Below, in pieces: positions 15,123 to 55,415 of a DNA stretch of 64,000 nt (positions are counted from its first letter, which is position 1; the number at the start of each line of letters is the position of its first letter). The stretch spans positions 4,084 to 68,083 of the forward strand of contig CABYHW010000004.1 in the NCBI GenBank assembly GCA_902518705.1, in the 5' to 3' direction. The notes below the pieces were generated by a model. That model was not told the DNA's origin and did not search any database. It worked only from the letters and a program-made list of their open reading frames with translations. The DNA comes from an uncultured Alphaproteobacteria bacterium. Lineage in GTDB: Bacteria; Pseudomonadota; Alphaproteobacteria; HIMB59; GCA-002718135. The translations under genes and the position numbers were made by a program.

Positions 15123-15144
15123 TAGTGATTAAATATATAAAAAA

Positions 15145-15175: not shown

Positions 15176-15188
15176 CATAATTGAAAAG

Positions 15189-16499: not shown

Positions 16500-16544
16500 T
16501 AATCCTCCTAATTTATAAAAAACAATTATCCCATCATTAGTTAT

Positions 16545-16595
16545 TGTCAATTTATAATAACTTTCTAATTGTTGATATTTACTGTCAATTTATAA
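16545..16595 (-). promoter_or_regulatory. Two direct copies of a 13-mer carrying TTGACA upstream of the binding-protein gene (candidate promoter/operator)
   Basis: tgtcaatttataa at 16545-16557 and 16583-16595. On the minus strand this is TTATAAATTGACA, i.e. a consensus -35 hexamer. The proximal copy lies about 46-58 nt upstream of the ATG, with GATAAT/TAATTG as possible -10. Confidence 0.35.
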
Positions 16596-18768: not shown

Positions 18769-18769
18769 T

Positions 18770-19552: not shown

Positions 19553-19558
19553 TTTGTT

Positions 19559-20533
19559 TTATCTAACTCTTTCTCCATGAAGACGATGTCCTAATAATGC
19601 TAACAATATAATTAAACCATTAAAGAATTGTCTCCATTCACCACTCCAACCTATTGCTATTATACCAATTTCCATATAGGCAATTATTCCTACGCCAAAG
19701 ACTGCCCCAATGATCGTACCCAATCCCCCCCAGTAAGGAGTGCCGCCAACAAACACTGCCGCGAGAGCTAATAACAAATATCCAAAACCCTGAGTAGGAA
19801 AAAATGTATATGTAATCATAGTGGTAAATATTCCACCTATAGCTGCACCAACACCAACAAACATAAAAGCTTTTATTTTAACAGCATTTACATTAATACC
19901 CATTTGTTCTGCACTAACAGAATTATCTCCTACATGCTGAATATGAATACCAAAAACATGTTTGTTAAAAAAATAGTAACAAAAAATTACAAATATTGCT
20001 GCCCAAAAAATTTGCATTGGGAAGCCATAAAAATTTCCAACTAAAAGAGGGTAGATCCAGTGGTTCTCTACTTCCATAATCGTAATGGATCTGCTGTTAG
20101 ATAATAAGAGAATTACACCTCTCAATAAAAATAATACTCCAAGTGACGCAACAAGAGAGGAAAGTCTAAATACAACAATTAATGTTCCAACGAGAGCACC
20201 AATAGCTGCTCCAGTAAAAATACCAAGAACTAAACAAATAGCTGGATCAACTCCATTTTTAACAAGTAAAGCAAATATATAAGCTGCTACAGCGTAAGTA
20301 GAGGCAAAGGAAAGATCTATTTCACCAGATGCAACTAGAAAAACTAATGGTATAGTTAAAAATATCAAAGTTGGCATCATTACAAATACTGATTGATGAA
20401 GGTTAGGCCTTATCCAAGCTTCTGGTGCACCTATTAAAAAAATTACCATTAATAGAACAAAGTATCCAATGCTTCCTAAAGCCCTTCCATTTCTGTGAAA
20501 GTAATTACTTAAATATGAATTATTTTTACTCAT
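19559..20533 (-). CDS. CUT2 (ribose/fructose-type) ABC transporter permease
   Basis: 324 aa, Gly/Ala-rich polytopic protein of RbsC/AraH/FrcC type. Confidence 0.8.
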   Translation of the reverse strand: MSKNNSYLSNYFHRNGRALGSIGYFVLLMVIFLIGAPEAWIRPNLHQSVFVMMPTLIFLTIPLVFLVASGEIDLSFASTYAVAAYIFALLVKNGVDPAICLVLGIFTGAAIGALVGTLIVVFRLSSLVASLGVLFLLRGVILLLSNSRSITIMEVENHWIYPLLVGNFYGFPMQIFWAAIFVIFCYYFFNKHVFGIHIQHVGDNSVSAEQMGINVNAVKIKAFMFVGVGAAIGGIFTTMITYTFFPTQGFGYLLLALAAVFVGGTPYWGGLGTIIGAVFGVGIIAYMEIGIIAIGWSGEWRQFFNGLIILLALLGHRLHGERVR

Positions 20534-21279
20534 TAGTGTGCCTTTATTGTTTCTCGCATTATCTTCATGAGTTCTTCTGGTGTTGATACATCATTTTTAT
20601 TAAGTTGATGAACAACTTCTCCTCTATCTAAAATTACAAATCTATCCGATATATCATATACATGATAAATGTTATGACCAATAAAAAGAACTGATCTATT
20701 TGATTTTTTTACATTTAGGACAAAATCAAAAACTTTCTGTGTTTCATTAAGAGATAAGTTATTTGTTGGCTCATCAAGAACAATTAATTCTGCTTTATTA
20801 TAAATTGCTCTTGCAATTGCTACGCCTTGTCTTTCACCTCCGGATAAATTTCCAACAGGAGATTCAGCATTAATTAATTTTGATGTAAAACCTATTTCTC
20901 TTATTAATCTATTTGCTTCAAAAATTTGTTCTTTTTCTTTTATAAAACCAAATGGGTATCGAAGTTCCTTACCCATAAAAATATTTTTAACTATCGATTG
21001 TTGTGGAGTTAAAGCTCTATCTTGAAAAACAGTTTCTATACCAGACTCTCTAGCCTTGAGGGCATTCCAAGCGTTTACTTTTTTTCCTCTTATTAGTATA
21101 TCACCTTCGTCAGGACTATATACACCTACTAGTGTTTTAATTAATGTTGATTTACCTGCACCATTATCACCAATTAAACCTACCACTTCACCCCTGGTTA
21201 CTTTTAATGATGCTTTGTTTAGAGCAGTAATACCGCCAAACCTTTTTGTAACATTATCTAATTCAATGATATTTTCCAT
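20533..21279 (-). CDS. ABC transporter ATP-binding protein, single cassette (FrcA-like)
   Basis: 248 aa. Walker A GDNGAGKST, signature LSGGERQ, Walker B LIVLDEPT, GHNI. It is half the size of the usual duplicated CUT2 ATPases. Confidence 0.85.
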   Translation of the reverse strand: MENIIELDNVTKRFGGITALNKASLKVTRGEVVGLIGDNGAGKSTLIKTLVGVYSPDEGDILIRGKKVNAWNALKARESGIETVFQDRALTPQQSIVKNIFMGKELRYPFGFIKEKEQIFEANRLIREIGFTSKLINAESPVGNLSGGERQGVAIARAIYNKAELIVLDEPTNNLSLNETQKVFDFVLNVKKSNRSVLFIGHNIYHVYDISDRFVILDRGEVVHQLNKNDVSTPEELMKIMRETIKAH

Positions 21280-21291
21280 AAAATTTGAAAT

Positions 21292-21315
21292 GCTAACCCA
21301 TTAAAATGGGTTAGC
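21292..21315 (-). terminator. Stem-loop between binding-protein and ATPase genes (attenuator)
   Basis: gctaaccca-ttaaaa-tgggttagc, a perfect 9-bp stem 12 nt after the binding-protein stop. Confidence 0.5.
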
Positions 21316-21326
21316 AATATATTTAC

Positions 21327-22322
21327 CTATCTTAAGCCTGCATCAGCAAGAGCTTTAACAGCTTGATAATTATTTGTATCAACAAATCCTGCACCAGTAT
21401 CTTGGTTTATTGCACCAGTACCAAGTACAGCTGTTTGACAAAGTGACAATACTGGAAGATACCCTTGAAGAAAAGGTTGTTGATCAGATGTTAGATGAAC
21501 ATATCCTTTTTCAAACGCCGACATAATTTGTGGACTTGTATCAAATCCAATTTGAAGTAACTCATCTGGTCCATAACCAGCAGCTTTGGCAATACCTTCC
21601 GCAACATTCATTACATCACTACCAGAGTGAACAATTACTTTTGTTTCAGGATTGGCATTTAACGCTGCTGAGAAAACTGGGATAGTCATATTTGGATCTG
21701 AAGCATAAGCTGGTTGTCCATCAAGAACAGTAACTGTCATTCCGTGTTCTTCAAATATGATTCTTGCACCATCTTCTCTTTGAGCTCTAGCGTAATCTCC
21801 AATAGGAACCATTACTATAGCGTGATCTCCAGCTTTGAAACCAAATTGCCTAATTGCTTCTCTTGCAAGAGCTTTACCTTGAGTTGCTAAATTTGCTCCT
21901 ACGTATCCGCCACCAAATTTTGCTCTTACACCTGATGGATCAACGTTTTGATATGTCATTAGAATACCCTTTTCAGCGGCTTGTTTTGCTAAAGGCATTA
22001 GAGCTTCATCTCCTGGATGTCCCATCATTGCAATAGCATCAACACCAAGTCCAACTGATTCTCTAAGTTGACGGACCATTTTTTCAAAATCCCATTCTGA
22101 GTATATAATTTCGGCGTCAGCTCCAGTATCTCTAATAGCATTCATAGCTCCTGCTGCAACTATTCCAGCAAAACCTCCTGCTTCAGGACCACCTGCATAG
22201 AAATGCATTTTTACATCTGAGCACCATTTATCACCTAGGTCTTGTCCAGTTGGAGCAGCATAAGCTTGCATAGAAACTGGAAAAAGAAATAAAGTAATAA
22301 GAAGTAATTTAATAATTTTCAT
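21327..22322 (-). CDS. Periplasmic sugar-binding protein (RbsB/LacI-type fold, CUT2)
   Basis: ORF 21327-22334. Preferred ATG at 22322 behind GGGAGG (complement of 22327-22332). Signal peptide MKIIKLLLITLFLFPVSMQAYA. Ala/Gly-rich type I PBP pattern. Confidence 0.8.
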   Translation of the reverse strand: MKIIKLLLITLFLFPVSMQAYAAPTGQDLGDKWCSDVKMHFYAGGPEAGGFAGIVAAGAMNAIRDTGADAEIIYSEWDFEKMVRQLRESVGLGVDAIAMMGHPGDEALMPLAKQAAEKGILMTYQNVDPSGVRAKFGGGYVGANLATQGKALAREAIRQFGFKAGDHAIVMVPIGDYARAQREDGARIIFEEHGMTVTVLDGQPAYASDPNMTIPVFSAALNANPETKVIVHSGSDVMNVAEGIAKAAGYGPDELLQIGFDTSPQIMSAFEKGYVHLTSDQQPFLQGYLPVLSLCQTAVLGTGAINQDTGAGFVDTNNYQAVKALADAGLR

Positions 22323-22403
22323 ATTTCCTCCCACGGATTTATTTTTAACATTAATATTAAATAATAATAATAAAGTTTAACAAAAATAACTTGTAAATGT
22401 CAA

Positions 22404-37593: not shown

Positions 37594-37668
37594 TGGTGCT
37601 GATACCGAGAATCGAACTTGAATCTGACCGTTACCAACGGCCTGTAATAACCATTATACTATATCAGC
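37594..37668 (-). tRNA. tRNA-Thr (anticodon GGU), CCA encoded
   Basis: Reverse complement is GCTGATATAGTATAATGGTTATTACAGGCCGTTGGTAACGGTCAGATTCAAGTTCGATTCTCGGTATCAGCACCA. It has a 7-bp acceptor stem, anticodon loop TTGGTAA and T-loop TTCGATT. One A-C mismatch in the T-stem. Confidence 0.85.
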
Positions 37669-38813
37669 TTTTTATTATTTTTATTCATTAAGAATAATAA
37701 TAATAAACCATTGATTGCCCATATTAAAGAAAGAACATACATATTAAATGTTAAGCCAAAATATTCTGCCATATACCCAACTATTACTGGTCCAAAAATA
37801 AAACCTGCAAATCCTAATGTTGCTAAATTTGATACAGTTAAATTGATTGGCTCATTAGAACTTTTGATTGCTTGTCGATAAACTACAGCAATGAAATTTG
37901 CTGTTCCAAAACCAAATAATATCATTCCTGGAATAATGAAATTAAGATTCATAGTAACAATTGATAATCCTAATATTATGCAAGAAAATAAACTAAAGTA
38001 ACCCCCAACTATTTCTTCATTTAAAATATTAATTAATTTACTTGCTAGCAATCTAGCAAAAATTTCTCCCAAATTAAAAAATAAAATAATCATCCCACCT
38101 AAATATAGGGGTGCTCCTAAATCCTTTGTGAGCCAAACAGGAGACCAATCTATAATTATACCTAAAGTTGCAAAATTCATCATTAATAAAAAACCATAAA
38201 TAAAAATGTTTCCAGAAGGCATTTTAAACTTTATATTTTTTTGAATTGGTTCAATTTCTCTTTTCATTCCAAATAATAAAATGACTAAAATATAAATAAA
38301 GAAAACTGCACCAACTAAAATAAAAGTAATTCTTGGATCTGAAATATTTTGAATAAAAAATGCAGCACTTAACGCTCCAAAAAGTGATCCTGCACTGAAA
38401 CAAGCTTGAAATAAAGGTGTAACTATTTTTGATGTTTTTTCTTCAATAATAGAAATTTGTGTTTGCATTGTTGGGAATAAGAGACCTATGGAAATTCCAA
38501 AAGGAATCCATGAAATTAAAAAAGTATCATAACTAGGGACACTTACCAAAAGTAAAGGGCAGAAAGAAAAAATAGTAATACCTAATATTATGGTTCTAGT
38601 TGTTCCAATTCTAGGAACTACAACTCTTCCCGACATTTGATTAGAAAAGAAATTAAAAATCCCAAATATAAAGATCCCAAAACCTAATTGAGATTCACTA
38701 ATATTTAATCTGTCAATATTCCAAGGAATATGTACAAAATATATTCCTATCATAAACATGAGCAAAAAAGCTACACCAAAACATGCATTTCTTTCTTTAT
38801 TAAAACTATTCAT
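37659..38813 (-). CDS. MFS transporter (paralogue 1)
   Basis: 384 aa, about 12 TM. N-terminal block PWNIDRLNISESQLGFGIFIFGIFNFFSNQMSGRVVVPRIGT is shared with the MFS at 51046-52206. The last 10 nt, including the stop, overlap the 5' end of tRNA-Thr. Confidence 0.8.
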   Translation of the reverse strand: MNSFNKERNACFGVAFLLMFMIGIYFVHIPWNIDRLNISESQLGFGIFIFGIFNFFSNQMSGRVVVPRIGTTRTIILGITIFSFCPLLLVSVPSYDTFLISWIPFGISIGLLFPTMQTQISIIEEKTSKIVTPLFQACFSAGSLFGALSAAFFIQNISDPRITFILVGAVFFIYILVILLFGMKREIEPIQKNIKFKMPSGNIFIYGFLLMMNFATLGIIIDWSPVWLTKDLGAPLYLGGMIILFFNLGEIFARLLASKLINILNEEIVGGYFSLFSCIILGLSIVTMNLNFIIPGMILFGFGTANFIAVVYRQAIKSSNEPINLTVSNLATLGFAGFIFGPVIVGYMAEYFGLTFNMYVLSLIWAINGLLLLFLMNKNNKKLI

Positions 38814-43862: not shown

Positions 43863-44651
43863 TTAATATGCGCTAGTATTATCAGATTTAGTATCTACAT
43901 CTTTCAATTCTTTTAATAAACTTTCAGCATGTGATGTCATCATTCTAAAATCAGAAAGTAAGGTGGTAAATTGAAAGCCATATTCCATCATTTCTTTCAT
44001 ATACTTAACTGATCCATTATGAATTCCAGCAATCTTTCCTTTTTCTTTTGCTTTTTTTGCAATCATTTTTATGTTTGAAAATACCGGATCTTCACGAACA
44101 TCAAATTTAGGTGGCAAACCATAAGAAGAACTCATATCTGCAGGCCCAATATAAATACCAGTTAAGTTTGGAACTGAAAGAATGGCATCTAAATTTTCTA
44201 CTGCCTCTTTTGTTTCAACCATTGCTAAACTCACTATGTTGTTATTCGCATGCTTATGGTAATCTGATCCATATGCAACCTGAGCTCTCATTGGACCAAA
44301 ACTTCTTTGTCCAATAGGGGGGTAATAACAATATGAAACAAACTTTTCGCAGTCCTCTTTTGTATTAATCATTGGTGCAATAATACCCTGAACTCCAAGA
44401 TCTAACATTTTCATAATAATTCCAGGCTCATTCCAAGGAACTCTTGTCATCGGAACAGTGTTACTATTTGATAATCCCTGAACCATCGCAATAGCAGTTG
44501 AATAGTCATTTTGACCATGTTGCATATCAATTGTAACAGAATCCCATCCCATTTTTCCAAATGCTTCAGCTGTAAAAGAATTAGGAATTGATAGCCATGC
44601 ATTTATAGATGCTTCATTTTTTCTCCATATGTCAAAGAGTGAGTTTTTCAT
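43863..44651 (-). CDS. HpcH/HpaI-family aldolase (2-keto-3-deoxy-acid aldolase)
   Basis: 262 aa. GWDSVTIDMQHG, VRVPWNEPG-like block (TRVPWNEPG), MVETKEAVENLD, YIGPADMS. Confidence 0.8.
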   Translation of the reverse strand: MKNSLFDIWRKNEASINAWLSIPNSFTAEAFGKMGWDSVTIDMQHGQNDYSTAIAMVQGLSNSNTVPMTRVPWNEPGIIMKMLDLGVQGIIAPMINTKEDCEKFVSYCYYPPIGQRSFGPMRAQVAYGSDYHKHANNNIVSLAMVETKEAVENLDAILSVPNLTGIYIGPADMSSSYGLPPKFDVREDPVFSNIKMIAKKAKEKGKIAGIHNGSVKYMKEMMEYGFQFTTLLSDFRMMTSHAESLLKELKDVDTKSDNTSAY

Positions 44652-44656
44652 AAAAT

Positions 44657-44677
44657 TTATTATTATTATTATTATTA
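44657..44677. repeat. (TTA)7 trinucleotide microsatellite in a divergent promoter region
   Basis: Seven perfect TTA units beginning 6 nt upstream of the aldolase start codon (minus strand). Confidence 0.9.
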
Positions 44678-44815
44678 TATTTAAATATAATTACTATTAA
44701 AATTAACTCGTAAATATATAATTCTCAAACTTTAGAGGTATTTTGCCCTACTAAATACAATCAACTTGCAGTGATTTTAAAATTCTTTAATGTAATATTA
44801 TTAAATGGAGGAATT

Positions 44816-46144
44816 ATGATTAAAACAGTAATAAGTTTTGTATCTGTAATTATTTTATCTACTTCTTTTTCTGCAATATCAAAAACCAAGGTAACTTGGT
44901 CGATGGAGTCTAATGCAGATAGAGACCCAATAATGATTGAAAAATTACAAAATGCTTACAACAATTCTCAAGGCAATTATGAACTCGTTATCGAATTTGA
45001 AGATAATGAAACAAGATTAACTTCAATGAGAACTGCTATGATTGGTGGTATGGGTCCTGATATCGTCGAGACTCCTGGTCCATCTTATGTAAAAGAGTAT
45101 CATGCAGCTGGTATGTTAGAAAATTTAGATTCATACGCTGCAGAATTTGGCTGGAAAGATAAGATGATACCTTGGGCTTATAGTTCAGGAGTTTTCGAAG
45201 GAAGTTTATACGCAATTCCAAAAACTCATGAATCAATGGTTATGCTTTATAATAAAACTTTATTTGAAGAAAATAATTGGAAAGTACCAACAACATTAGA
45301 AGAATTAGAAGATGTTGCTGGCAAAATTAAAGCAAAAGGTATGAATGTATTTTCATATGGATCAGATGGATGGCAACCTACTCATGAACACCTTGTAGGA
45401 ATTTATTTAAATAACTATGCAGGTCCTCAAGCTGTATATGAAGCAATAATTGGTGAAAGAGAATGGACAGATCCTGTTTTTGTTGAAGCTCTTGAGTTAC
45501 TTAAAAAACATATGGTTGACGAGGGATATTGGTCTGGAAGCCTAGAAAATTATTATGCTATTGGATGGGATGATTTCCATGCTCAATTTGCTAATAGAGG
45601 GGCAGCTATGATGACAATTGGTACTTGGACTTTTCAAGCAACACAATTAGGTATTGGTGCGAGCGGTGATGAATGGGGTTGGGCTCCACTTCCATCTCTA
45701 TCTTCGCAATCTCCAGATCCTAATTTTATGATTGCAATTGGTACAACTATGTCAGTTAATGCAAATGGTAAAAATAAAGATGGTGCGATAGATGTTTTAA
45801 ACTGGATAATGAGTAACAAAGACAAAGTTCTTGATATTGCTAAAGACTTTGAATTTGGAGAAATGGTAGTTCCATTAACTTTATCTAGCAGTGATATTCC
45901 AACTGATATTGCTCCTCAAGTTCAAGATTATCTAAGCGAATATGCAAGAATTACCGGCGAAGGTAATTATGGATATTGTACTTGGACTTTTTGGCCTGCT
46001 GACCCTGGTGTTCATATTTGGAAAGATATGGAAGTTGTATGGGCTGGCGATATATCTGTTGAAGATTTCTTATATGATCATCAAAAGATGTGGGATAAAG
46101 CTAGAAAAAATGGCGACACTTTACCAGTTCCATTAAGAAACTAA
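44816..46144 (+). CDS. Extracellular solute-binding protein (family 1, carbohydrate type)
   Basis: ORF 44771-46144. Preferred ATG 44816 behind GGAGG (44807-44811). Signal peptide MIKTVISFVSVIILSTSFSA. W/G/Y-rich CUT1 binding-protein pattern. Confidence 0.85.
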   Translation: MIKTVISFVSVIILSTSFSAISKTKVTWSMESNADRDPIMIEKLQNAYNNSQGNYELVIEFEDNETRLTSMRTAMIGGMGPDIVETPGPSYVKEYHAAGMLENLDSYAAEFGWKDKMIPWAYSSGVFEGSLYAIPKTHESMVMLYNKTLFEENNWKVPTTLEELEDVAGKIKAKGMNVFSYGSDGWQPTHEHLVGIYLNNYAGPQAVYEAIIGEREWTDPVFVEALELLKKHMVDEGYWSGSLENYYAIGWDDFHAQFANRGAAMMTIGTWTFQATQLGIGASGDEWGWAPLPSLSSQSPDPNFMIAIGTTMSVNANGKNKDGAIDVLNWIMSNKDKVLDIAKDFEFGEMVVPLTLSSSDIPTDIAPQVQDYLSEYARITGEGNYGYCTWTFWPADPGVHIWKDMEVVWAGDISVEDFLYDHQKMWDKARKNGDTLPVPLRN

Positions 46145-46158
46145 AATAAATATACAAA

Positions 46159-46182
46159 CAGTGAAGCTTCAAAGCTTCACTG
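46159..46182 (+). terminator. Stem-loop after the binding-protein gene (attenuator)
   Basis: cagtgaagctt-ca-aagcttcactg, a near-perfect 24-nt palindrome 15 nt after the stop, followed by TATTT. Confidence 0.5.
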
Positions 46183-46190
46183 TATTTAAA

Positions 46191-47066
46191 ATGAAAATAT
46201 TTTCTAATAAAAATTTTGTTGCCTGGTATTTTGTCTTTCCTGTTGCATTCATTCATTTATTTGTAATAGGCATTCCATCACTTGCAAGTTTAGCGTTATG
46301 TTTAACTGACTGGAGAGGGCTTGGTGAAATAAATTATATTGGTTTTGAAAATTTTATAGAACTATTTGATGATAGATATCTTAAAAAGGCAATTATTAAT
46401 AATGTAATCTGGACTATTGCTTTCCTAACTGTACCAGTTGGAATCGCATTAACTTGTGCTTATCTACTTACAGGAATTAAAAGAGGCCAAATGTTTTTTC
46501 GACTTGCTTTCTTTTTTCCTTACATGCTTGCAAGTGTAATTAATTGTCAAATTTGGAAATATTTATTTCACCCAATTCATGGTCTTGGAGGTTTTTTTGA
46601 GAGGATTGGTTGGGATTTTTTAGCAGTATCTCCATTTACTATGAAATCTACGTCTTTATTTGCAGTAGCATTTGTAGATGGTTGGCATTTTTGGGGTTTT
46701 CTTGTGGTTATATATTTAACAGGAATGTATCAAGTTGATAATCATCTTTACGAAGCTGCAGATATTGAGGGAGCAACAAAATTTCAAAAATTTAGATACA
46801 TAACTTTACCAATGATTAGACCAGTTTTTGTTTTTAGTATTATGATTATAATTATTTGGTCTGTTCCAGTGTTTGATTATGTATATATTTTAACAGGTGG
46901 TGGTCCTGCATACAGTTCAGAAGTAATAGCAAACTATATGTATTCTCAAGCATTTGAGAGATTTGATGTTGGATACTCTTCTGCAATAGGAACACTAATG
47001 TTTTTTTATGTTATGATTATAGTTGCTTTGTTTGGTCTTTTTAGAAAAGCTGGGTGGGATATCTAA
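46191..47066 (+). CDS. CUT1 ABC transporter permease (MalF-like)
   Basis: ORF from GTG 46161, which lies inside the hairpin; ATG 46191 preferred. EAA loop YEAADIEGATKFQKFRYITLPM. Confidence 0.85.
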   Translation: MKIFSNKNFVAWYFVFPVAFIHLFVIGIPSLASLALCLTDWRGLGEINYIGFENFIELFDDRYLKKAIINNVIWTIAFLTVPVGIALTCAYLLTGIKRGQMFFRLAFFFPYMLASVINCQIWKYLFHPIHGLGGFFERIGWDFLAVSPFTMKSTSLFAVAFVDGWHFWGFLVVIYLTGMYQVDNHLYEAADIEGATKFQKFRYITLPMIRPVFVFSIMIIIIWSVPVFDYVYILTGGGPAYSSEVIANYMYSQAFERFDVGYSSAIGTLMFFYVMIIVALFGLFRKAGWDI

Positions 47067-47902
47067 TGATAGTTGCAAAATATAGAAGTAGAGAAGTGAT
47101 ATCCAATTATATAATACTAATTATATTTGCTTTGATAGCTATACTGCCTCTAGCAGTTCTTTTATTTAATTCAATTAAGCCTCAAATGGAGTTTGGCGTA
47201 AATCCACTTGGACCTCCAAGTGAAATAAGATTTGAAAATTTTAGTGAAGCTTGGGTTAAGGGAGAATATGCTAAAGTTTTTTTTAATTCTTTAAAGTTAG
47301 TTGCTGGATCAGTATTATTGTGTCTTGCAGTTTCACTTGCAGCGGGATTTAGTCTTGCAAAATTAAATCCAAAAGGATCTGCAATAATCGCTGTTTACCT
47401 TTTAGTTGGTATAAGTATTCCTGCACAACTTTATATCGTGCCTTTGTTCTTATTATGGAAGGAGATACATCTTTTAAATACACATATAGGATTAATTATA
47501 ATCTACACAGCTTTAAATGCACCATTTGCAACTTTCTTAATTAGATCTTACATGATTAGATTGCCAGATGAGCTATTTGAAGCTGCACGACTTGATGGAG
47601 CTAATACTTTTCAACTTTTTTTTAGAGTTGCGCTACCTCTTTCATGGCCAGTTATTTTAACTGCAGGATTAATAATAGCTCTTGCAGTTTGGAATGAATT
47701 TTTATTTGCTTTAACTTTTATTAGTGAAGAAGGTTTTAAACCTATGGCTACTATATTATTTGCATTTCAGTGGAGATTTGAAAATAATTACGCACTGCAA
47801 AGCGCATCAGCGATAATGATGGTTGCGCCTGTGGCAATTCTTTTCATGCTATTTCAAAGGAGATTTATTTCTGGATTAACTAGTGGAGGATTAAAAGGTT
47901 AA
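47054..47902 (+). CDS. CUT1 ABC transporter permease (MalG-like)
   Basis: EAA loop FEAARLDGANTFQLFFRVALPL. Start is ATG 47054 or ATG 47066 (TAATG overlap with the upstream stop). Confidence 0.85.
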   Translation: MGYLMIVAKYRSREVISNYIILIIFALIAILPLAVLLFNSIKPQMEFGVNPLGPPSEIRFENFSEAWVKGEYAKVFFNSLKLVAGSVLLCLAVSLAAGFSLAKLNPKGSAIIAVYLLVGISIPAQLYIVPLFLLWKEIHLLNTHIGLIIIYTALNAPFATFLIRSYMIRLPDELFEAARLDGANTFQLFFRVALPLSWPVILTAGLIIALAVWNEFLFALTFISEEGFKPMATILFAFQWRFENNYALQSASAIMMVAPVAILFMLFQRRFISGLTSGGLKG

Positions 47903-50065
47903 ATGAATTACAAGTTAGACAAAAATTATGAAGAAAAAGTTTATGCAGGTGTTTTGGGAAAAATTATAGGTGTATTTCTTGGAAGGCCTTTTGAAGGTTG
48001 GACCTATGAAAGAATAATGAAAGAGTTAGGTCCAATAAATTATTATGTAAATGAGAAATTAGATTTTCCCTTACCAGTTTCAGATGATGACATTACCGGT
48101 ACATTTACCTTTTTACGTGCTTTTAGAGAGTGCAATTTTAAAAAAAATATTACTGCTAAAGATATAGGTAAAACGTGGTTAAATAATATTATTGAAGATA
48201 AAACAATTCTATGGTGGGGAGGAAAGGGACATTCAGCAGAGGATACAGCTTTTCAAAATTTAAAACAGGGCATTGATGCACCTGATAGTGGTTCCATTAA
48301 AACTAATGGTAAGGTAATTGCTGAACAAATAGGAGCTCAAATTTTTATTGATGGTTGGGCCATGGTAGCACCTGGCGATCCAGAAAGAGCAGTTCATTAT
48401 GCTAAACTTGCTGCAAGTGTTAGTCATGATGGGGAGGCAATTTATGGCGCACAAGTTGTAGCTGCTCTAGAGTCAATGGCCTTTGTCGAAAGTGATTTAA
48501 CAAAGCTAGTTGAGCAAGCTAAAAAGTTTATCCCAGATAATTCACTAATATTTAGATTAATATCTGACATACAAGAATGGCGATCTGGAAATTTAGGTTG
48601 GGAACAAGCAAGAGAAAAAATTGCTGAAAATTACGGATACGATAAATATTTAGGTAACTGTCATATGGTACCCAATCATGCTTTAATTATTATGGCTTTA
48701 CTATTTGGAGATGATGATTTTCAAAAAACTATGATGATTGTGAATACAGCAGGTTGGGACACAGATTGTAATTCAGGAAATGTTGGTTGTATTTTAGGAA
48801 TTAAAAATGGAATAGAAGGACTAAAATCAGGTCCTGATTATTTGTCTCCTATCAATGATATTTTATATTGCCCCTCTGCATCAGGAGGTGAAACACTTAC
48901 TGACGCACTGACAGAAACTTATAAAATAATTAATACAACTAGAAAAATTAATGGTTTAGAAGAAAATTTACCTAAAAATGGAGCTAGATTTCATTTTGAT
49001 ATTAAAGACTCAACACAAGGTTGGCGAACAAGAGTTGGAAATAATTTTTGTGAAACAAAAATCAGTAATGTTGAATACAAATCTTCATTAGGAGAAAGAG
49101 GTTTAAAAATTGCATATAAAAATCTTTCAGAAGATTTAACTTCAGAAGTTTATGTAGAAACATTTTTTCCTGAGGTTATTTTAGATTTAAAAGGAAAAAA
49201 AAGAGATGATTTCTTTCATTACGATTATATTTCTTGTCCAACTATTTTTCCAGGTCAGAAAGTAACTTTGGAAATAGAAAATATATTTTCTCATGAAATC
49301 TCAATCACATTATTCTCAAAATATTGGGGTGAAAATGATAAACTCCAAAAAAATTCTTCAAATATTTTTAATTTAAGTGGAAATGAAAAAAAACAAATAT
49401 CTTGGAATGTGCCTGACACTAGCTCAAACCCTATTGGTCAAATCGGCTTTAATATCGCATCAAAGGAAAAAAAAGATGGAGAAGTTGTTATTAACTACGT
49501 CAATTTTGAAGGAGAACCGAAACAAATATTTAAAAGACCTGATCACGTAGAAAATTATCAAAGAGGTAAAGAAAAAAAAGAGGGTTACTATGGTGAAATT
49601 TGGAGAAATGCATGGGTTCAATCATTAGACAAATGGGAAAAGAGAGGTAAAAATTTTAGAATTTGCCAAAATAATGGTAGGGGAATTTTATTTACTGGAA
49701 CAGATTTATGGAGAAATTATTCAATTGCATCAAATATTATGTTGCAGTCTAGTAACTCTGGAGGAATAGTATCAAGAGTCCAAGGTGTAAATAAATACTA
49801 CACCTTTGAAATTTGTAAAGGCAACAAGTTACGCATTGGAAAGATGAATAATGATTATAAAATATTAAAAGAAGAAGAATTTGGTGTAGAATTTTTTAAA
49901 GAATATAATTTAAAAATGACAGTAATAAAAAATAAAATTATTGGACACATTAATGATAAAATTATTATTGAAGTTGAGGATGATCATTCTCCTTTTCTTA
50001 AAGGTGGAGCAGGTTTAGTTGTTGATAGCGGGACTTTAGTAACAGAACAGATAATCTTAAATTAA
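47903..50065 (+). CDS. ADP-ribosylglycohydrolase-family domain fused to a ~380-aa C-terminal beta-rich region
   Basis: 720 aa. N-terminal third to half carries ARH-family blocks (GVLGKIIGVFLGRPFEGW, VSDDDITGT, NTAGWDTDCNSGNVGCILG). The last ~130 aa (NYSIASNIMLQSSNSGGIVSRV...LKGGAGLVVDSGT) looks like a ConA-like/DUF1080-type beta-sandwich. Confidence 0.75.
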   Translation: MNYKLDKNYEEKVYAGVLGKIIGVFLGRPFEGWTYERIMKELGPINYYVNEKLDFPLPVSDDDITGTFTFLRAFRECNFKKNITAKDIGKTWLNNIIEDKTILWWGGKGHSAEDTAFQNLKQGIDAPDSGSIKTNGKVIAEQIGAQIFIDGWAMVAPGDPERAVHYAKLAASVSHDGEAIYGAQVVAALESMAFVESDLTKLVEQAKKFIPDNSLIFRLISDIQEWRSGNLGWEQAREKIAENYGYDKYLGNCHMVPNHALIIMALLFGDDDFQKTMMIVNTAGWDTDCNSGNVGCILGIKNGIEGLKSGPDYLSPINDILYCPSASGGETLTDALTETYKIINTTRKINGLEENLPKNGARFHFDIKDSTQGWRTRVGNNFCETKISNVEYKSSLGERGLKIAYKNLSEDLTSEVYVETFFPEVILDLKGKKRDDFFHYDYISCPTIFPGQKVTLEIENIFSHEISITLFSKYWGENDKLQKNSSNIFNLSGNEKKQISWNVPDTSSNPIGQIGFNIASKEKKDGEVVINYVNFEGEPKQIFKRPDHVENYQRGKEKKEGYYGEIWRNAWVQSLDKWEKRGKNFRICQNNGRGILFTGTDLWRNYSIASNIMLQSSNSGGIVSRVQGVNKYYTFEICKGNKLRIGKMNNDYKILKEEEFGVEFFKEYNLKMTVIKNKIIGHINDKIIIEVEDDHSPFLKGGAGLVVDSGTLVTEQIILN

Positions 50066-50068
50066 AGT

Positions 50069-51052
50069 ATGAAATATAGAAAATTTGGCTCTCTTGATTG
50101 GAATGTATCTGAAATAGGTTTAGGCTGTTGGCAGATTGGCGCTGATTGGGGAAAGGTTAGTGAAGAGAAGGCAAATGAAGTATTACAATCATCATTTGAA
50201 AATGGAGTAAACTTTTTTGATACAGCTGATGTATATGGTGATGGTAGAAGTGAAAAATTTGTGGGAAATTTTATAAATTCTATTTCTGAGAGAATTTATG
50301 TAGCAACAAAAGCTGGTAGACGTATTAACCCACACGTTGCAAACGGTTATTATGATAAAGATTTAATGGAGTCATTTGTAGACCGATCATTATCAAATCT
50401 AAATATTGAAACTATTGATCTTTTACAAATGCATTGTCCTCCAACAGAAGTTTATTCATCAGATAATACTTTTGAAATGTTAGATTACTTAGTAGGTAAA
50501 GGAAAAATACAAAATTATGGGTTTAGCGTTGAAACAGTTGATCAAGCATTAGAATGTATAAAAAAACCTCAAACAAAGTCTATTCAAGTTATCTTTAACA
50601 TTTTTAGACAAAAACCTGCGGAACAATTATTTAAAATAGCAAAAGAAAAAAAAGTAGCAATTATAATTAGAGTTCCTCTTGCTAGCGGTTTGTTATCAGG
50701 AAAATTTGATAAAAATTCTTCTTTTGTCTCTGACGATCACCGAAATTATAATATTAACGGTGATGCATTTGATGTTGGTGAAACATTCTCTGGTGTTAAT
50801 TATTCAAAAGCATTGGAAGCAGTTGAAGAACTTAAAAATATTATTCCAAATGAAGTAACTCTTTCTCAATTATCTCTTAAATGGATTTTAATGCATGAAG
50901 CTGTGAGTGTTGTTATTCCGGGTGCAAAAAATAAGGATCATGTAGATCTAAATACTGCCTCTAGTGAAGTTAATGAAATTTCTTCTTTAATGAATAAAAT
51001 AAATCAAATTTATACAAAATATTTCTATGATGATGTACATCATCGTTGGTAA
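50069..51052 (+). CDS. Aldo/keto reductase
   Basis: 327 aa. GLGCWQIG, FFDTADVYGDGRSE, IDLLQMH, VIPGAKN. Confidence 0.85.
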   Translation: MKYRKFGSLDWNVSEIGLGCWQIGADWGKVSEEKANEVLQSSFENGVNFFDTADVYGDGRSEKFVGNFINSISERIYVATKAGRRINPHVANGYYDKDLMESFVDRSLSNLNIETIDLLQMHCPPTEVYSSDNTFEMLDYLVGKGKIQNYGFSVETVDQALECIKKPQTKSIQVIFNIFRQKPAEQLFKIAKEKKVAIIIRVPLASGLLSGKFDKNSSFVSDDHRNYNINGDAFDVGETFSGVNYSKALEAVEELKNIIPNEVTLSQLSLKWILMHEAVSVVIPGAKNKDHVDLNTASSEVNEISSLMNKINQIYTKYFYDDVHHRW

Positions 51053-52206
51053 TAAATTTTGTGTTAGAAGAAACTAAGATATTTAGAAGAGCAACTCTTG
51101 CATCAATAATAACATCAACTTATCCCATGATAGTTGTTGGATGTTACTTCGGTATTACTCCGTGGAATATGAACAGATTGTCAATTGATGAAACTGATTT
51201 GAGTTTTTCAATATTAATTTTTGGAATTTTTTTTGTGTTATCAAATCAAATAGCTGGAAGAATATTAGTCCCAAAATATGGAACAAGGTTAGTTATGTCT
51301 TTGGCCTTTCCACTAATTACCTTTTCTTCATTGTTATCGATAACATCTTCATCATATCTTTATTTTTTATTAACTTTTATTCCAGCTGGGATAGGATGGG
51401 GGGCTTCTGGACCGATTGGAGGCATACATTGTCAACTAATTGAAAAATATTTTAAGAAAATTATTACTCCTTATTACGCTATGGGTTTCAATATTGGTAT
51501 TCTTGTTGGTGGAGGTTTGGCGGGTATAATTATGCGTTACAACTTTGAGCCTTATATTTTTTTTCTAGTTTTATCTTTTTCTTCAATATTAGTTGCATTC
51601 TTAGTTCTTCATCTAGGATTACCGAGTAATTTAGATTTTAAAGGTAAAGGTGAAAAATTTAAAATTCCAGAGTCAAATGTTCTTATATTTGGTTTCTTAT
51701 TATTTTTTGTTTTTGGTTCTGGCGGTATAATTATGGATTGGTCAACATTATGGCTATCAAAAGATTTAAATGCCCCTCTTTATCTTGCAAGCATGGGTTT
51801 AATATTTTTTAGTATTGGAGGTATTTTTGCGAATTTATTCTCTAACACTTTAATTAATTTATTTACTGAAAAAGTTGTAGGATGTCATTTTGTGATGATT
51901 GGCGCATTAGTAATGTTTTTATCTTTATTAACAAACAATTTTTATATTATACTAGGAATCTTATGTATTTATGGATTTGCTATAGCAAACTTGGTTCCTA
52001 TAGTCATTCGCCAAGCTGTTAAGCAGTCTAACGAAAGTATTCCTATGACAGTAACTAATCTCATAACCATTGGATTATCTTCCACAATGATTATGCCAGC
52101 GGCAATCGGTTTTCTTGCAGAAACATTTTCGCTAACTTTGAATATGTATTTACTATCTATTATTGTTTTTACTTCTGGATTTGTTTTTTTACTTAAGTTT
52201 AAATGA
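51046..52206 (+). CDS. MFS transporter (paralogue 2)
   Basis: 386 aa, about 12 TM. N-terminal block PWNMNRLSIDETDLSFSILIFGIFFVLSNQIAGRILVPKYGT parallels the MFS at 37659-38813. Confidence 0.8.
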   Translation: MVINFVLEETKIFRRATLASIITSTYPMIVVGCYFGITPWNMNRLSIDETDLSFSILIFGIFFVLSNQIAGRILVPKYGTRLVMSLAFPLITFSSLLSITSSSYLYFLLTFIPAGIGWGASGPIGGIHCQLIEKYFKKIITPYYAMGFNIGILVGGGLAGIIMRYNFEPYIFFLVLSFSSILVAFLVLHLGLPSNLDFKGKGEKFKIPESNVLIFGFLLFFVFGSGGIIMDWSTLWLSKDLNAPLYLASMGLIFFSIGGIFANLFSNTLINLFTEKVVGCHFVMIGALVMFLSLLTNNFYIILGILCIYGFAIANLVPIVIRQAVKQSNESIPMTVTNLITIGLSSTMIMPAAIGFLAETFSLTLNMYLLSIIVFTSGFVFLLKFK

Positions 52207-53018
52207 AATTAATGAATAAATTAAAAATATCTCAAGTTCAATTTCAAGCAAGTCATATCCCAGCTTTAAATGCTGAGATTCTTGAGAAAAGTTTTAATAA
52301 AACATTAAAATTTAAGCCTCACTTAATTTGTACGCCTGAATGCTCTAACATGATAACCAATGACAAAAATTATTTAATAACAAATGCTCCATATCAAAAC
52401 ACCTGTCCAGTTTTGAAAATGGCAAAAGATTTTGCTAAAAAAAATAAAATTACTATAAATCTTGGCTCCTTACTTTTAAAAATCAAAAATCAAAGAAAAC
52501 TTGTAAATAGATCTTATTTTATAAATAATAATGGTGTTGTAGAAAAAACTTATGATAAAATTCATATGTTTGATGTTAAAATTAATAACAAAGAAAAACA
52601 TCAAGAGTCATCTTTGTTTCAAGCTGGTAATGAAATAACTTATGCAAAAATAAAAAACATTAAAATAGGAATGACAATTTGTTATGATTTACGATTTCCT
52701 AATTTATACAGACAACTTTCCAAAAAAGATTGTTCAATTATTTTAGTTCCTGCTGCTTTCACTAGACCAACTGGAAAAGATCATTGGGAAATTTTAAATC
52801 GATCAAGAGCTATAGAAAATAATGTATTTATTTTGGCAACTGGGATGTGTGGAAACCATCATATGCAAAGGAAAACTTATGGATATTCTCTCATAGTAGA
52901 TCCTTGGGGAAAGATTGTAAATTATACTAAAAATAGACCTTCTACACTTAATTCAACTATTAATATTTCAGAGGTAAAAAAAATAAGAAAAAAAATTCCC
53001 TCATTAAAATATGAGTAA
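52203..53018 (+). CDS. Carbon-nitrogen hydrolase (Nit/omega-amidase-like)
   Basis: 271 aa. Glu-Lys-Cys triad contexts CTPECSN, YDKIHMFD, MTICYDLRFP. Confidence 0.8.
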   Translation: MKLMNKLKISQVQFQASHIPALNAEILEKSFNKTLKFKPHLICTPECSNMITNDKNYLITNAPYQNTCPVLKMAKDFAKKNKITINLGSLLLKIKNQRKLVNRSYFINNNGVVEKTYDKIHMFDVKINNKEKHQESSLFQAGNEITYAKIKNIKIGMTICYDLRFPNLYRQLSKKDCSIILVPAAFTRPTGKDHWEILNRSRAIENNVFILATGMCGNHHMQRKTYGYSLIVDPWGKIVNYTKNRPSTLNSTINISEVKKIRKKIPSLKYE

Positions 53019-53634
53019 TTTTAAATCATTAGTTTCAGGTGTCGGAAATTTAAATAAAACTACAAAATATTATGATGATTGGTCAGAAAAATATGATGAA
53101 ACACTTAAGTTATGGAATTATCAAGCACCCAAAAAAAGCATTAAATTTTTAAAAGAAACAACTAATTTTAAACCAAATAATATCTTAGATTTAGCATGTG
53201 GAACTGGCTTATTTGGTGCCAAATTAAAAAAAGTTTATCCAAAAAGTCATATATATGGATCAGATATTTCAAAAAAAAGCTTAAAAATTTCATCAGAAAA
53301 AAAAATTTATAAAAAATTACAAATAAAAAACTTTGAACAACTACATAATTATAAAATAAAATTTGATCTTATTTCTTTGATTGGCTCTATGACGTATTGT
53401 AAAAACTTTGATAAACTTTTTGTTAATATTAATAAAAATATTAAACAGAAAGGCTTTGTTTTATTTACTCATAGAATTGATTTATGGCAGAAACAGAATT
53501 TTTTAAGTATTTTAAAAAATCATCAAAAATCATTAAAAATCATTAAAATTTCTAGGCCTTTAAATTATTTACCTTTGAATAAAGATTTCAAAAATAAAAT
53601 AAAAATAAAAATTGTTTTATTACAAAAATATTAA
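53011..53634 (+). CDS. Class I SAM-dependent methyltransferase
   Basis: 207 aa. Motif I ILDLACGTGLFG; acidic post-I residue in GSDIS. Confidence 0.75.
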   Translation: MSNFKSLVSGVGNLNKTTKYYDDWSEKYDETLKLWNYQAPKKSIKFLKETTNFKPNNILDLACGTGLFGAKLKKVYPKSHIYGSDISKKSLKISSEKKIYKKLQIKNFEQLHNYKIKFDLISLIGSMTYCKNFDKLFVNINKNIKQKGFVLFTHRIDLWQKQNFLSILKNHQKSLKIIKISRPLNYLPLNKDFKNKIKIKIVLLQKY

Positions 53635-53796: not shown

Positions 53797-54210
53797 TTAT
53801 TTTTTTGAGTTAAAATTATCCATTTTTCGAAGTGTCTTTTCACTTACGTGATGCTCTATTCCTTCAGCATCTTCAGAGGCCGTATTTTTGTCTAAACCAA
53901 GATTGCGTAAAAAATTGTAGACTATATTATGCCTTTTTCTTGATTCACTTGCTATTTTTTGACCTTTAAAAGTTAAAAAAATTGATCGATAAGGTTCTCT
54001 TTTAATGTAACCCTGTGTTTGTAATCTTTGTATTGTTTTATTGGCTGTGGCTTGTGCAATACCCAAACTTTCAGCAATATCAACAATACGAGCTTCTCCT
54101 CTAGAATTTAACAGTTCTGCAATTAGTTCTAGATAATCTTCAGTATTTTCTGTTTTATGAGCATTTCGGACTTTACTGAATGACATCCCTTTTTTTAACA
54201 TAATAATCAA
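53797..54210 (-). CDS. mntR: DtxR-family manganese-responsive transcriptional regulator
   Basis: 137 aa. TEDYLELIAEL, winged-helix ARIVDIAESLGIAQATANKTIQRL, RHNIVYNFL, EGIEHHVS. Confidence 0.8.
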   Translation of the reverse strand: MIIMLKKGMSFSKVRNAHKTENTEDYLELIAELLNSRGEARIVDIAESLGIAQATANKTIQRLQTQGYIKREPYRSIFLTFKGQKIASESRKRHNIVYNFLRNLGLDKNTASEDAEGIEHHVSEKTLRKMDNFNSKK

Positions 54211-54226
54211 TAAAATTTAACAGAAA

Positions 54227-54244
54227 ATATAGCCATAGCTATAT
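54227..54244. promoter_or_regulatory. Candidate MntR operator (palindrome ATATAGC-CATA-GCTATAT) in the mntR/mntX divergent promoter
   Basis: 18-bp palindrome with 8 of 9 positions pairing. Same TAGC-N4-GCTA core architecture as enterobacterial MntR boxes (CATAGC-N4-GCTATG). An extra half-site AGCTATAT repeats at 54250-54257. Confidence 0.55.
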
Positions 54245-54266
54245 TTATTAGCTATATATACATTCA

Positions 54267-55415
54267 ATGAATGCGCTAATTAATGCTATTAATGAAAAAA
54301 CAAAGATCATTCTTGAGAATGATGGAAGGTTATTAAAGAAATCTTTCTTTGGTCTTTTACTACTTTCCCTTGTTTTTCAAGGGGGTGAATTTGGTGATGC
54401 TATAAGATCATCAATGATTGATGCTTATATTCAAGTATCTGTTTTTGTTGGATTTACTCTTTTTGTTTTTATTGGCTTGGATAGTTTAACAAAATTTGAT
54501 GTAAAGAATTTTTTAGCTAAAACGCAAAAGTTCCATGTTGGTATAGCTGCGTTTTTAGGTGCAATACCTGGATGTGGTGGAGCTATAATAGTTGTGACAC
54601 AATATATTCAGGGCCGTATTTCTTTTGGGTCTTTAGTAGCGGTATTAACAGCAACAATGGGCGATGCAGCTTTTTTAATACTTGCTATTGAGCCCACAAC
54701 AGGATTTTTAATATTTGGTATTGGAATAATTGTTGGATCAATTTCAGGTTATATAATTGATTTTATTCATGGCATAAATTTTATGCAATCAGAGACAAAA
54801 ATAAAAGTTGAATTTGAAAAAATAAATAAAACTTTTGTATCGAATTTTAATTTCTTTTGGCTTTTTTTATTTATTCCTGGTTTTATTTTAGGTATTCTAG
54901 TTGCATTCCAGATAGAATTTTCACCAGCTTATAACTCACTTTTAGTTTTTGTAGCTTCAGCTGGAGCAATACTTTCAATATTTATGTGGTCATTAAATCC
55001 ATTAAGTGATTTTCAATGCTCAACTGACAAAAGCAGAGGATTATTATCAAGAGTAGTAGATACAACTAATTTTGTAACCACCTGGGTCATTAGTGGTTTC
55101 CTTGTCTTTGAAATATTTATGTACTTTACAAGTTTAGATTTAAAAATATTTTTTGATTTATGGCTACCGTTTGTTCCATTAGTAGCAATATTATTTGGGT
55201 TTTTACCTGGTTGTGGACCGCAAGTTGTTGTGGCAACGTTTTATCTAAATGGCTATATTCCTCTTTCTGCAGAGCTTGGTAATGCTATTTCAAATGATGG
55301 TGATGCTTTATTCCCAGCAATTGCTCTTGCCCCAAAAGCTGCGATTTTAGCAACTCTTTATAGTGCAATTCCTGCATTAGTTGTTGCCTACGGATATTTT
55401 TACCTATTTGAGTAA
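54267..55415 (+). CDS. mntX: Putative manganese transporter of the MntX type (10-TM, two PGCG repeats)
   Basis: 382 aa polytopic protein with internally repeated motifs [15 protein letters not shown]...MGDAAF and [15 protein letters not shown]...NDGDALF. Divergent from mntR with a palindromic operator between them. Confidence 0.55.

Follow-up and report, generated by a model that had tools for sequence, protein, structure and literature searches.

A 64-kb stretch of DNA from an uncultured alphaproteobacterium (64,000 nucleotides (nt) of contig CABYHW010000004.1; hereafter the window, meaning the whole stretch that was analysed) carries an accessory island of six genes, 7.5 kb long and lying at ~44.7-52.2 kb. 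It encodes a solute-binding protein (SBP), two ABC permeases, a hydrolase of the ADP-ribosylglycohydrolase (ARH) fold fused to two further domains, an aldo/keto reductase (AKR) and a transporter of the major facilitator superfamily (MFS). With a G+C content of ~30% and a coding fraction of ~93%, nearest relatives that are single-cell genomes labelled uncultured marine Alphaproteobacteria, and methyltransferase relatives that carry a Pelagibacteraceae annotation, the window fits SAR11. We are confident of the gene anatomy and of the island boundaries as described below. That the island is a glycoside uptake and hydrolysis system is likely, and on balance we favour the fuller reading, in which it is a catabolic island that occupies a variable slot in SAR11 genomes and serves the import and cleavage of a sugar conjugate. 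That the sugar is ribose is a tentative proposal. An initial annotation of this DNA had joined the six genes to the next two, for a Nit-branch hydrolase and a methyltransferase, as one eight-gene operon. All eight plus-strand open reading frames are present where it placed them, Pfam matched the domain identity of each, and the HpcH aldolase gene is indeed divergent from the cluster, as follows:

43863-44651, minus strand: HpcH/HpaI-type aldolase (PF03328), a flanking core gene outside the island
44652-44815, plus strand: intergenic region between the HpcH and SBP genes, the presumed island promoter, with GGAGG as ribosome-binding site ahead of the ATG at 44816
44816-46144, plus strand: CUT1-type periplasmic SBP of 442 residues (aa) with an N-terminal signal peptide (PF01547, 84.7 bits)
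46158-46183, plus strand: stem-loop just past the SBP stop codon (folding free energy -16.7 kcal/mol, z -6.5)
46191-47066, plus strand: ABC permease 1, MalF/UgpA-like, 291 aa (PF00528; best NCBIfam matches GlcT and UgpA)
47066-47902, plus strand: ABC permease 2, MalG/UgpE-like, 278 aa (PF00528, 73.7 bits; best NCBIfam matches GlcU, UgpE and MalG)
47903-50065, plus strand: ARH-fold hydrolase fused to two beta-sandwich domains, 720 aa (PF03747, 176.5 bits)
50069-51052, plus strand: aldo/keto reductase, AKR11-like, 327 aa (PF00248, 207 bits)
51061-52206, plus strand: MFS transporter, 381 aa (386 aa if the TTG at 51046 is used), the last island gene (PF07690, MFS_1)
52203-53018, plus strand: Nit-branch C-N hydrolase (CN_hydrolase), a flanking core gene outside the island
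53011-53634, plus strand: class I S-adenosylmethionine-dependent methyltransferase, a flanking core gene outside the island

To define the island, we used the HpcH protein to search metagenome contigs, and the 80 loci obtained were annotated from the window proteins by phmmer (L-numbers such as L001 and L097 label the homologous loci and contigs compared with the window). The gene beside HpcH was readable in 55 of these loci: it was Nit in 39, the SBP gene in 15 and the ARH gene in one. Where Nit stood beside HpcH, the gap was usually ~100 nt (at most 200 nt in 34 of the 39), the SBP, permease, ARH, AKR and MFS genes were all absent, and the methyltransferase, MntR and ArsP_2 genes came next in nearly all loci whose contig extends that far, as they do in the window. 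These island-less contigs have a G+C content of 24-29% and keep the order ABC-F, HpcH, Nit, methyltransferase, MntR, ArsP_2, and are therefore SAR11-like genomes with an empty slot. HpcH has the same ABC-F neighbour with or without the island. The AKR gene was present in every SAR11 island locus that extends past the last ARH gene (17 loci), the MFS gene came next wherever the contig continues, and both were missing from all 39 island-less loci. Since Nit and the methyltransferase gene stand beside HpcH in those 39 contigs, they are core neighbours and not part of the island; they and HpcH are resident core genes.

The SAR11 islands themselves fall into types A, B and C, type B including L002, L003, L017 and L020 and type C, the third type, being that of L152 and L160. 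In type C, a GntR/UTRA regulator gene lies in the gap between HpcH and SBP, before the SBP gene (L152 9230-9916), and a glucose/sorbosone dehydrogenase gene (PF07995, GSDH) whose product bears a signal peptide lies antisense between the MFS and Nit genes (L152 695-1762, and likewise in L160), so that Nit and the methyltransferase gene cannot share the island transcript there. The junction between MFS and Nit also varies, from a 4-nt overlap in the window to a 5-nt gap in L001, L002 and L013. The proposal of a single eight-gene unit thus fails on co-conservation: Nit and the methyltransferase gene occur in the 39 contigs without the other six, and 69 loci outside SAR11 (below) have the ARH gene without the set of AKR, MFS, Nit and methyltransferase genes. 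The proposed steps of aglycone deamidation and methylation are thus left without support, whereas a transport-plus-hydrolase unit for an unnamed substrate is genuine.

The slot between HpcH and Nit seems to be a small hot spot of variable content, and other inserts of 0.7-1.35 kb are found there in the island-less loci L103, L106, L139, L142 and L146. Direct and inverted repeats flanking the island were searched for, with AT-rich chance matches as the only result. One apparent island-less variant with a truncated AKR gene (L008) was rejected as a chimeric assembly, in which high-GC foreign DNA (nt 1-530) gives way to SAR11 sequence midway through the AKR gene.

The central enzyme of the island is the 720-aa ARH fusion, which is laid out as follows:

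aa 16-308 (nt 47948-48826): ARH domain (PF03747)
~aa 370-545: middle beta-sandwich
~aa 598-716 (nt 49694-50050): CBM66-like, ConA-like lectin domain, by sequence and fold match

The PF03747 match far exceeds its cut-off (26.2 bits) and spans profile positions 2-285 of 287. The acidic di-metal motifs and the N-terminal glutamate of the superfamily are present as GRPFE(31), (T/S)DDD(61-63) and DTDC(286-289), with Cys or Ser for the usual Thr; the equivalence of these residues to those of ARH3 and DraG is read from motif position. GRPFE, TDDD, SHDGE and DTDCN were invariant in all 12 aligned ARH fusions (SAR11 paralogues, two other alphaproteobacteria, Rhizobium and Anaerolinea), and the key motif residues were invariant or nearly so in 29 divergent family members. 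An AlphaFold model shows the C-terminal half to consist of two beta-sandwich domains. The last of these (aa 598-716) matched the CBM66 module of Bacillus subtilis levanase both by sequence (hmmsearch, E 7e-5) and by fold (Foldseek, E 5e-8, template-modelling score 0.72, root-mean-square deviation 1.8 A), in a part of the model where the per-residue confidence (pLDDT) is 80-93, and it gave weak Pfam matches to the galactocerebrosidase lectin domain (GH59_C) and to a 3-keto-disaccharide hydrolase. For the middle beta-sandwich (aa 360-560) there was no Pfam match even at E = 1. The sequence holds no signal peptide, so the enzyme is predicted to be cytoplasmic and to act on imported substrate. It belongs to a large family, with 3476 clusters (at 50% identity) at E <= 0.001 and 515 at E <= 1e-30, and most top matches are ~700 aa long and align end to end. 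An exact-sequence look-up of the window protein returned no record, and in the published literature we found no paper on this family or on the SAR11 island.

The transporter encoded in front of the enzyme has the composition of a CUT1 importer, namely an SBP (PF01547/PF13416) with a hydrophobic N-terminus and two PF00528 permeases, the best NCBIfam matches of which are GlcT/GlcU, UgpA/UgpE and MalF/MalG. The nearest solved relatives of the SBP are oligosaccharide binders (4g68, BxlE (3vxb) and NagB1; E 4e-25 to 4e-19), and its best NCBIfam match is NgcE. As the initial annotation had stated, the cluster contains no ABC ATPase of its own. The 604-aa ABC protein encoded upstream has two ABC_tran domains and an ABC_tran_CTD domain and is ABC-F-like, and is therefore no transporter subunit. 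The importer is instead probably energised by an ATPase from a second CUT1 operon of the window:

11817-12947, minus strand: MalK-type ABC ATPase of the second CUT1 operon (ABC_tran, OB_MalK and TOBE_2)

Compared with the MalK-like ATPase encoded 3' of the ARH gene in Rhizobium (L072), this protein scores 339 bits, and MalK-type ATPases stand beside the ARH gene in relatives from rhizobia and in L022. In the part consulted, the SAR11 binding-protein survey of Clifton et al. (2024) names one sugar binder, SAR11_0769.

Homologues from elsewhere show that the front of the island has a wide distribution. When genomes were scanned with the family alignment, 79 loci were obtained, of which 69 lie beyond the SAR11 set; the sources of these include Anaerolineae, Caldilineaceae and other Chloroflexota, Bacillota, Rhizobium, Mesorhizobium, Bradyrhizobium and Ktedonosporobacter. 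In Rhodobacteraceae, another alphaproteobacterium, Chloroflexota, Bacillota and rhizobia, the genes for the SBP, the two permeases and the ARH fusion again lie in this order and in one direction, and the SBP orthologues beside ARH fusions in other phyla score 250-440 bits against the window SBP. The front four genes thus form a cassette that is conserved across phyla. Recurrent neighbours, identified by clustering and Pfam scans, were a LacI regulator (25 of the 69 loci, usually just 5' of the SBP gene), a MalK-type ATPase (12, often directly 3' of the ARH gene), a PfkB kinase (11, of which 10 are co-directional and usually abut the ARH gene) and a Gfo/Idh/MocA oxidoreductase (seven). An IU-nucleoside hydrolase gene lies 3' of the ARH gene in two loci (L038 and L056), a Nudix hydrolase occurs in two others (L066 and L082), and several loci carry further stand-alone ARH genes. 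The kinase that abuts the ARH gene in L088 exceeds the ribokinase equivalog cut-off (334.9 against 299.65), and the other PfkB kinases tested have ribokinase or ribose-1-phosphate kinase as their best match, below cut-off. Neither Nit nor the methyltransferase was found near the ARH gene in the 69 loci, save for a weak methyltransferase match in L069, and a Pfam census of 125 further neighbouring open reading frames in the non-SAR11 loci revealed no additional family in more than three loci.

Within SAR11, this cassette has been swapped between lineages. When the window was compared with related SAR11 that have two or four ARH genes (L002, L003, L017 and L020), the flanking ABC-F, HpcH, MntR and ArsP_2 genes were 93-99% identical and the AKR, MFS, Nit and methyltransferase genes 81-92% identical, whereas identity fell to 51% for the SBP, 65-70% for the permeases and 54-57% for the ARH genes. 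Indeed, the front four genes of type B are as distant from those of the window as are those of a Rhodobacteraceae single-amplified genome (L021) or of another alphaproteobacterium (L022). A finer mosaic is seen between L004 and L005, in which the SBP and permeases are 98-100% and 81-87% identical to the window, respectively, while ARH through methyltransferase are 96-99% identical in both; this points to a recombination breakpoint at the boundary between permease 2 and the ARH gene. L014 and L015 show mosaic identity as well. In Sargasso Sea data, synteny was noted never to be kept among homologues of SAR11_1227, the ARH gene of strain HTCC1062 (Wilhelm et al. 2007, PMC2217521, Table 3), which agrees with a mobile cassette.

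The number of ARH-fusion copies in the same chromosomal slot varies as well, from one (the window, L001, L004-L006 and L013-L015) through two (L003) to four in tandem (L002, L016, L017 and L020). Paralogues B1-B3 are 64-71% identical among themselves and B4 is 50-53% identical to them, so the paralogues are old and form two lineages, B1-B3 and B4. Because GRPFE, TDDD, SHDGE and DTDCN are kept in all of them, all look catalytically competent, and such tandem, diverged hydrolase copies suggest a family of related substrates. In one TARA scaffold (L097 1-1798), the ARH start codon is joined ~23 nt from the intergenic region between HpcH and SBP. Compared with window positions 44707-47901, this is a precise 3.2-kb deletion of the SBP and both permease genes that leaves the ARH gene with the same upstream region. 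L097 is one short contig and could be an assembly artefact; if genuine, it is a hint that the ARH enzyme can receive its substrate through another transporter.

From these data we propose the following mechanism. The SBP would capture a small glycoside or oligosaccharide in the periplasm, and the two permeases would import it, powered by a MalK-type ATPase encoded elsewhere, probably that at 11817-12947. In the cytoplasm, the divalent-metal ARH domain of the 720-aa enzyme would cut the glycosidic bond, with the lectin- and CBM66-like beta-sandwich domains helping to hold the sugar. The released sugar would most likely be ribose or another furanose, which other phyla would phosphorylate with the adjacent ribokinase-like PfkB kinase. 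SAR11 would instead couple the enzyme to the AKR and MFS proteins, probably for the conversion of one product and for membrane transport of the substrate or of the second product. The data establish which genes are present or absent, the domain layout and motif conservation of the enzyme, the swapping of cassettes and the synteny between phyla, whereas the direction of MFS transport, the sharing of the ATPase, the part played by the AKR and, most of all, the identity of the substrate are inferred. As far as is known, every characterised ARH enzyme (ARH1, ARH3 and DraG) cleaves the C1'' bond of ribose. Because these enzymes act at that position, and because ribokinase-like kinases and nucleoside hydrolases recur as partners outside SAR11, the substrate is probably a ribosyl or other furanosyl glycoside. 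The ribosylated metabolite guessed at in the initial annotation fits the kinases, nucleoside hydrolases and extra ARH genes found beside homologues. With some reserve, we would extend the proposal to the family as a whole: the ~700-aa proteins that combine an ARH domain with a double beta-sandwich may form a large, multi-phylum family of cytoplasmic, metal-dependent glycosidases that free ribose or another furanose from small glycosides imported by CUT1 systems. The SAR11 island would then be a strain-variable route into an unrecognised pool of dissolved organic carbon, in which one to four paralogues and swappable cassettes tune the conjugates used.

Several findings weigh against this proposal. 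All solved ARH structures are very distant from this ARH domain: the best match is MJ1187 (1t5j; E = 0.009), and when the family profile was run against solved structures no ARH structure, including ARH1, ARH3 and DraG, was found at E < 0.01. In the AlphaFold model, built on a shallow alignment (>=55% identity), the ARH half has a pLDDT below 50 and only the C-terminal domains are usable. A literature search returned no biochemical data for any ~700-aa member of the family. The nearest solved relatives of the SBP bind xylo- or chito-oligosaccharides, that is pyranoses and not ribosides, and CBM66 is known as a fructan binder. A PfkB kinase accompanies the cassette in only 11 of the 69 loci, and none was found in the SAR11 island or in the 64-kb window. 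The AKR and MFS genes were not found with the cassette in the 69 loci (the AKR gene behind ARH in L056, of Chloroflexota, is unrelated), and their identity stayed at ~85% where the front four genes had been exchanged; they may thus form an accessory pair of their own. Finally, two Caldilineaceae loci (L066, 6956-12163, and L082, 6289-13210) combine the ARH fusion with a Nudix protein (Nudix_hydro and NUDIX) and have no transporter nearby, and in L082 genes for RtcB and a D12 DNA methyltransferase also lie near the ARH fusion; this context might reflect another role of the family.

Several of these points would be met if the cassette imported a non-ribose sugar, such as a fructofuranoside or a xylo- or chito-type disaccharide, with the ARH fold recruited as a new glycosidase. 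The kinship of the SBP with xylo-oligosaccharide and chitobiose binders would follow, as would the resemblance of the C-terminal domain to CBM66 and the galactocerebrosidase lectin domain; LacI and Gfo/Idh/MocA proteins are generic partners in sugar operons, and ribokinase is absent from most loci. We nevertheless think this unlikely: the kinases, where present, are ribokinase-like and that of L088 is a true equivalog, nucleoside hydrolases and further ARH genes co-occur with the cassette, and to our knowledge none of the characterised ARH-family enzymes has a non-ribose glycoside as its substrate.

A different question is whether the AKR and MFS genes belong to the same system, or are an independent accessory pair that shares the slot with a unit of only the SBP, two permeases and ARH. 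Their absence from the cassette outside SAR11, their 82-86% identity where the front four genes fall to 51-70%, and an MFS paralogue elsewhere in the window (37659-38813) would all sit well with independence. Yet the pair is found in every long-enough SAR11 island locus and in none of the 39 island-less ones, the gap between ARH and AKR is only 3 nt, an AKR gene directly follows the ARH gene in Chloroflexota L056, and L097 keeps the ARH gene without the importer, a hint that another transporter can serve it. We therefore consider independence quite unlikely, and keep all six genes in the glycoside uptake and hydrolysis system.

It is very improbable that the ARH fusion reverses the ADP-ribosylation of macromolecules, in regulation, as a toxin antidote or in defence, with the adjacent transporter being incidental. 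Membership of Pfam ADP_ribosyl_GH would suit such a role, as would the two Caldilineaceae loci with Nudix, RtcB and DNA methyltransferase genes and no transporter. However, the fusion abuts a CUT1 importer, co-directionally and with LacI, in at least 29 non-SAR11 loci of several phyla; it carries lectin- and CBM-like domains, is present as one to four diverged copies in tandem, like the glycosidases of sugar-utilisation loci, and has no close similarity to the ARH1, ARH3 and DraG structures. A role in defence or as a toxin antidote was rejected on this genomic context. Least credible is a single eight-gene pathway for a nitrogen-containing glycoside, running from import, hydrolysis and sugar reduction to deamidation by Nit and methylation: although all eight genes point the same way, with short gaps or overlaps between them in the window and in close relatives, and read-through into Nit and the methyltransferase gene is likely in this genome given the 4-nt overlap of Nit with the MFS stop, the 39 contigs with Nit, the methyltransferase gene and the same flanks, the antisense GSDH gene of type C, the unconserved MFS/Nit junction, the lack of both genes near ARH outside SAR11 (bar the weak match in L069), the closeness of Nit to Nit1/Nit2-type repair amidases and the prevalence of tight junctions genome-wide all speak against it.

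The junctions themselves had been taken as an argument for translational coupling. Most of the coordinates given for them were right. Permeases 1 and 2 have one base in common between stop and start (TAATG, 47064-47068), permease 2 and the ARH gene abut at 47902/47903, ARH and AKR are separated by a 3-nt gap (50065/50069), MFS and Nit overlap by 4 nt (ATGA, 52203-52206), and Nit and the methyltransferase gene overlap at 53011-53018. Two places call for revision. The most likely start of permease 1 is 46191, which gives the 291 aa annotated in relatives (the alternative is a GTG at 46161) and leaves a 46-nt spacer after the SBP gene. The AKR/MFS overlap (51046-51052) requires a TTG start at 51046, and with the GTG at 51061 that is used in relatives it becomes an 8-nt gap. 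The tight packing is real (six of the seven cluster junctions are <=10 nt) but barely beyond chance in a streamlined genome: 49% of the 37 other same-strand junctions in the window are also <=10 nt (median 37 nt; p ~0.06, a binomial estimate against these other junctions). Because short junctions are the norm across the genome, they are on their own weak evidence for one functional unit.

The hairpin between the SBP and permease genes is likely to be an mRNA-stabilising element or a partial terminator, which would lift SBP expression over that of the permeases. None of 200 shuffled sequences folded as well, its position is kept in island types A, B and C while the stem sequences differ with compensating changes, and in L005 and L014 a T-run lies 3' of it. 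A scan for promoters and terminators over 43.8-54.4 kb gave the same counts as shuffled sequence and was uninformative on operon structure. In the divergent promoter region between HpcH and SBP, an (ATT)n run at ~44660-44680 could differ in length among strains.

Compared with known systems, the island is a variant of a sugar-uptake operon that carries a hydrolase of a large, apparently unpublished family. It resembles CUT1 operons that combine a cytoplasmic glycosidase with a shared MalK/MsiK/MsmX ATPase, such as the Streptomyces systems BxlEFG-BxlA for xylobiose and NgcEFG for chitobiose: in both, the gene for a cytoplasmic hydrolase lies behind those for an SBP and two permeases, no ATPase gene belongs to the cluster and one of MalK type (for the island a candidate) is found elsewhere, and LacI or GntR regulators (in relatives of the island) and a hairpin after the SBP gene are shared features. 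What sets the island apart is that its hydrolase is a metal enzyme of the ARH fold that bears lectin-like domains, and that in SAR11 an AKR and an MFS transporter are added. The hydrolase falls outside any glycoside hydrolase family known to us. With ARH1, ARH3 and DraG it shares a strong PF03747 match, the TDD/DxD acidic motifs and the N-terminal glutamate, but it has about double their length and two additional beta-sandwich domains, shows D-T-D-C in place of the canonical ARH motif D-x-D-T/S, and occurs in a context of nutrient import and not of protein modification. The last ~120 residues are like the CBM66 of the B. subtilis levanase SacC (PDB 4azz, 4b1m) in sequence and fold, although that module is attached to a secreted GH32 enzyme and the island module to a cytoplasmic ARH domain. 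Another parallel is Escherichia coli yegTUV, which we take to encode an MFS nucleoside-type permease (YegT), an ARH-family protein (YegU) and a PfkB kinase (YegV). It would thus pair ARH with MFS, as in SAR11, and ARH with PfkB, as in Chloroflexota; it presumably differs in that YegU is a single-domain protein of ~330 aa and in having no ABC importer, and its function is likewise unassigned.

The Rus loci of Bacteroidetes comprise a transporter, one or more ribokinases and a variable set of ribose-freeing enzymes that includes ADP-ribosylglycohydrolases and nucleoside hydrolases, the ARH enzymes of these loci being themselves untested (Glowacki et al., bioRxiv 10.1101/574913). The likeness is in concept only, since Rus is a SusC/D-based polysaccharide utilisation locus with a RusT permease and a RusR regulator while the island is built on a CUT1 ABC system, has ABC and MFS genes for transport and lacks a ribokinase in SAR11. 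The island is not a Rus locus, but by analogy may work like one.

The identity of the ligand would matter in several ways. No bacterial group is more abundant in the surface ocean than SAR11, and the choice of dissolved organic compounds that are consumed there depends largely on its few transporters. The island is a strain-variable set of importer and enzymes, and in soil, sludge and marine bacteria alike its hydrolase family is consistently linked to sugar importers. Knowing the ligand would add a compound class to the SAR11 diet, would give a branch of the ARH superfamily a catabolic small-molecule function as against the known reversal of ADP-ribosylation, and would explain the four diverged copies in some lineages; the interest would be higher if it proved to be an unrecognised class of marine ribosides. 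For ligand and expression work, the unit of study is the six-gene island and not the Nit and methyltransferase genes.

Of the remaining proteins of the cluster, the AKR has IolS and YhdN as its closest solved structures, and the island MFS transporter gave no match to the nucleoside:H+ symporter family in a Pfam scan. The closest structures to the Nit hydrolase are Nit1/Nit2, and it scores below the NCBIfam equivalog cut-off for deaminated glutathione amidase (NF043013; 201.7 against 500 bits). Nit1/Nit2-type enzymes are metabolite-repair amidases. Downstream of the methyltransferase gene (53797-55415), the genes for a Mn-responsive repressor of the MntR type (NF008273, 182 bits, exceeding its cut-off) and for an ArsP_2-family permease are transcribed divergently. 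As a pair they are kept in all related loci, and may represent a Mn-regulated transporter.

The MFS paralogue at 37659-38813 (minus strand, 384 aa) has 66% nt identity over 228 nt to the island MFS gene, and its 3' end overlaps a predicted tRNA-Thr (37594-37668). Sugar-uptake genes are unusually dense in the window for SAR11. The second CUT1 system is complete (11817-16550, minus strand), with an SBP at 15189-16550 and two permeases at 13000-15122 besides the MalK-type ATPase. A fatty-acid desaturase gene follows at 16658-17653, and a CUT2-type ABC system (17713-22334, minus strand) comprises a Peripla_BP_4 SBP, a BPD_transp_2 permease and an ATPase. This system adjoins genes for ThuA and a Gfo/Idh/MocA oxidoreductase, a pairing reminiscent of ThuAB-type 3-keto-sugar pathways.

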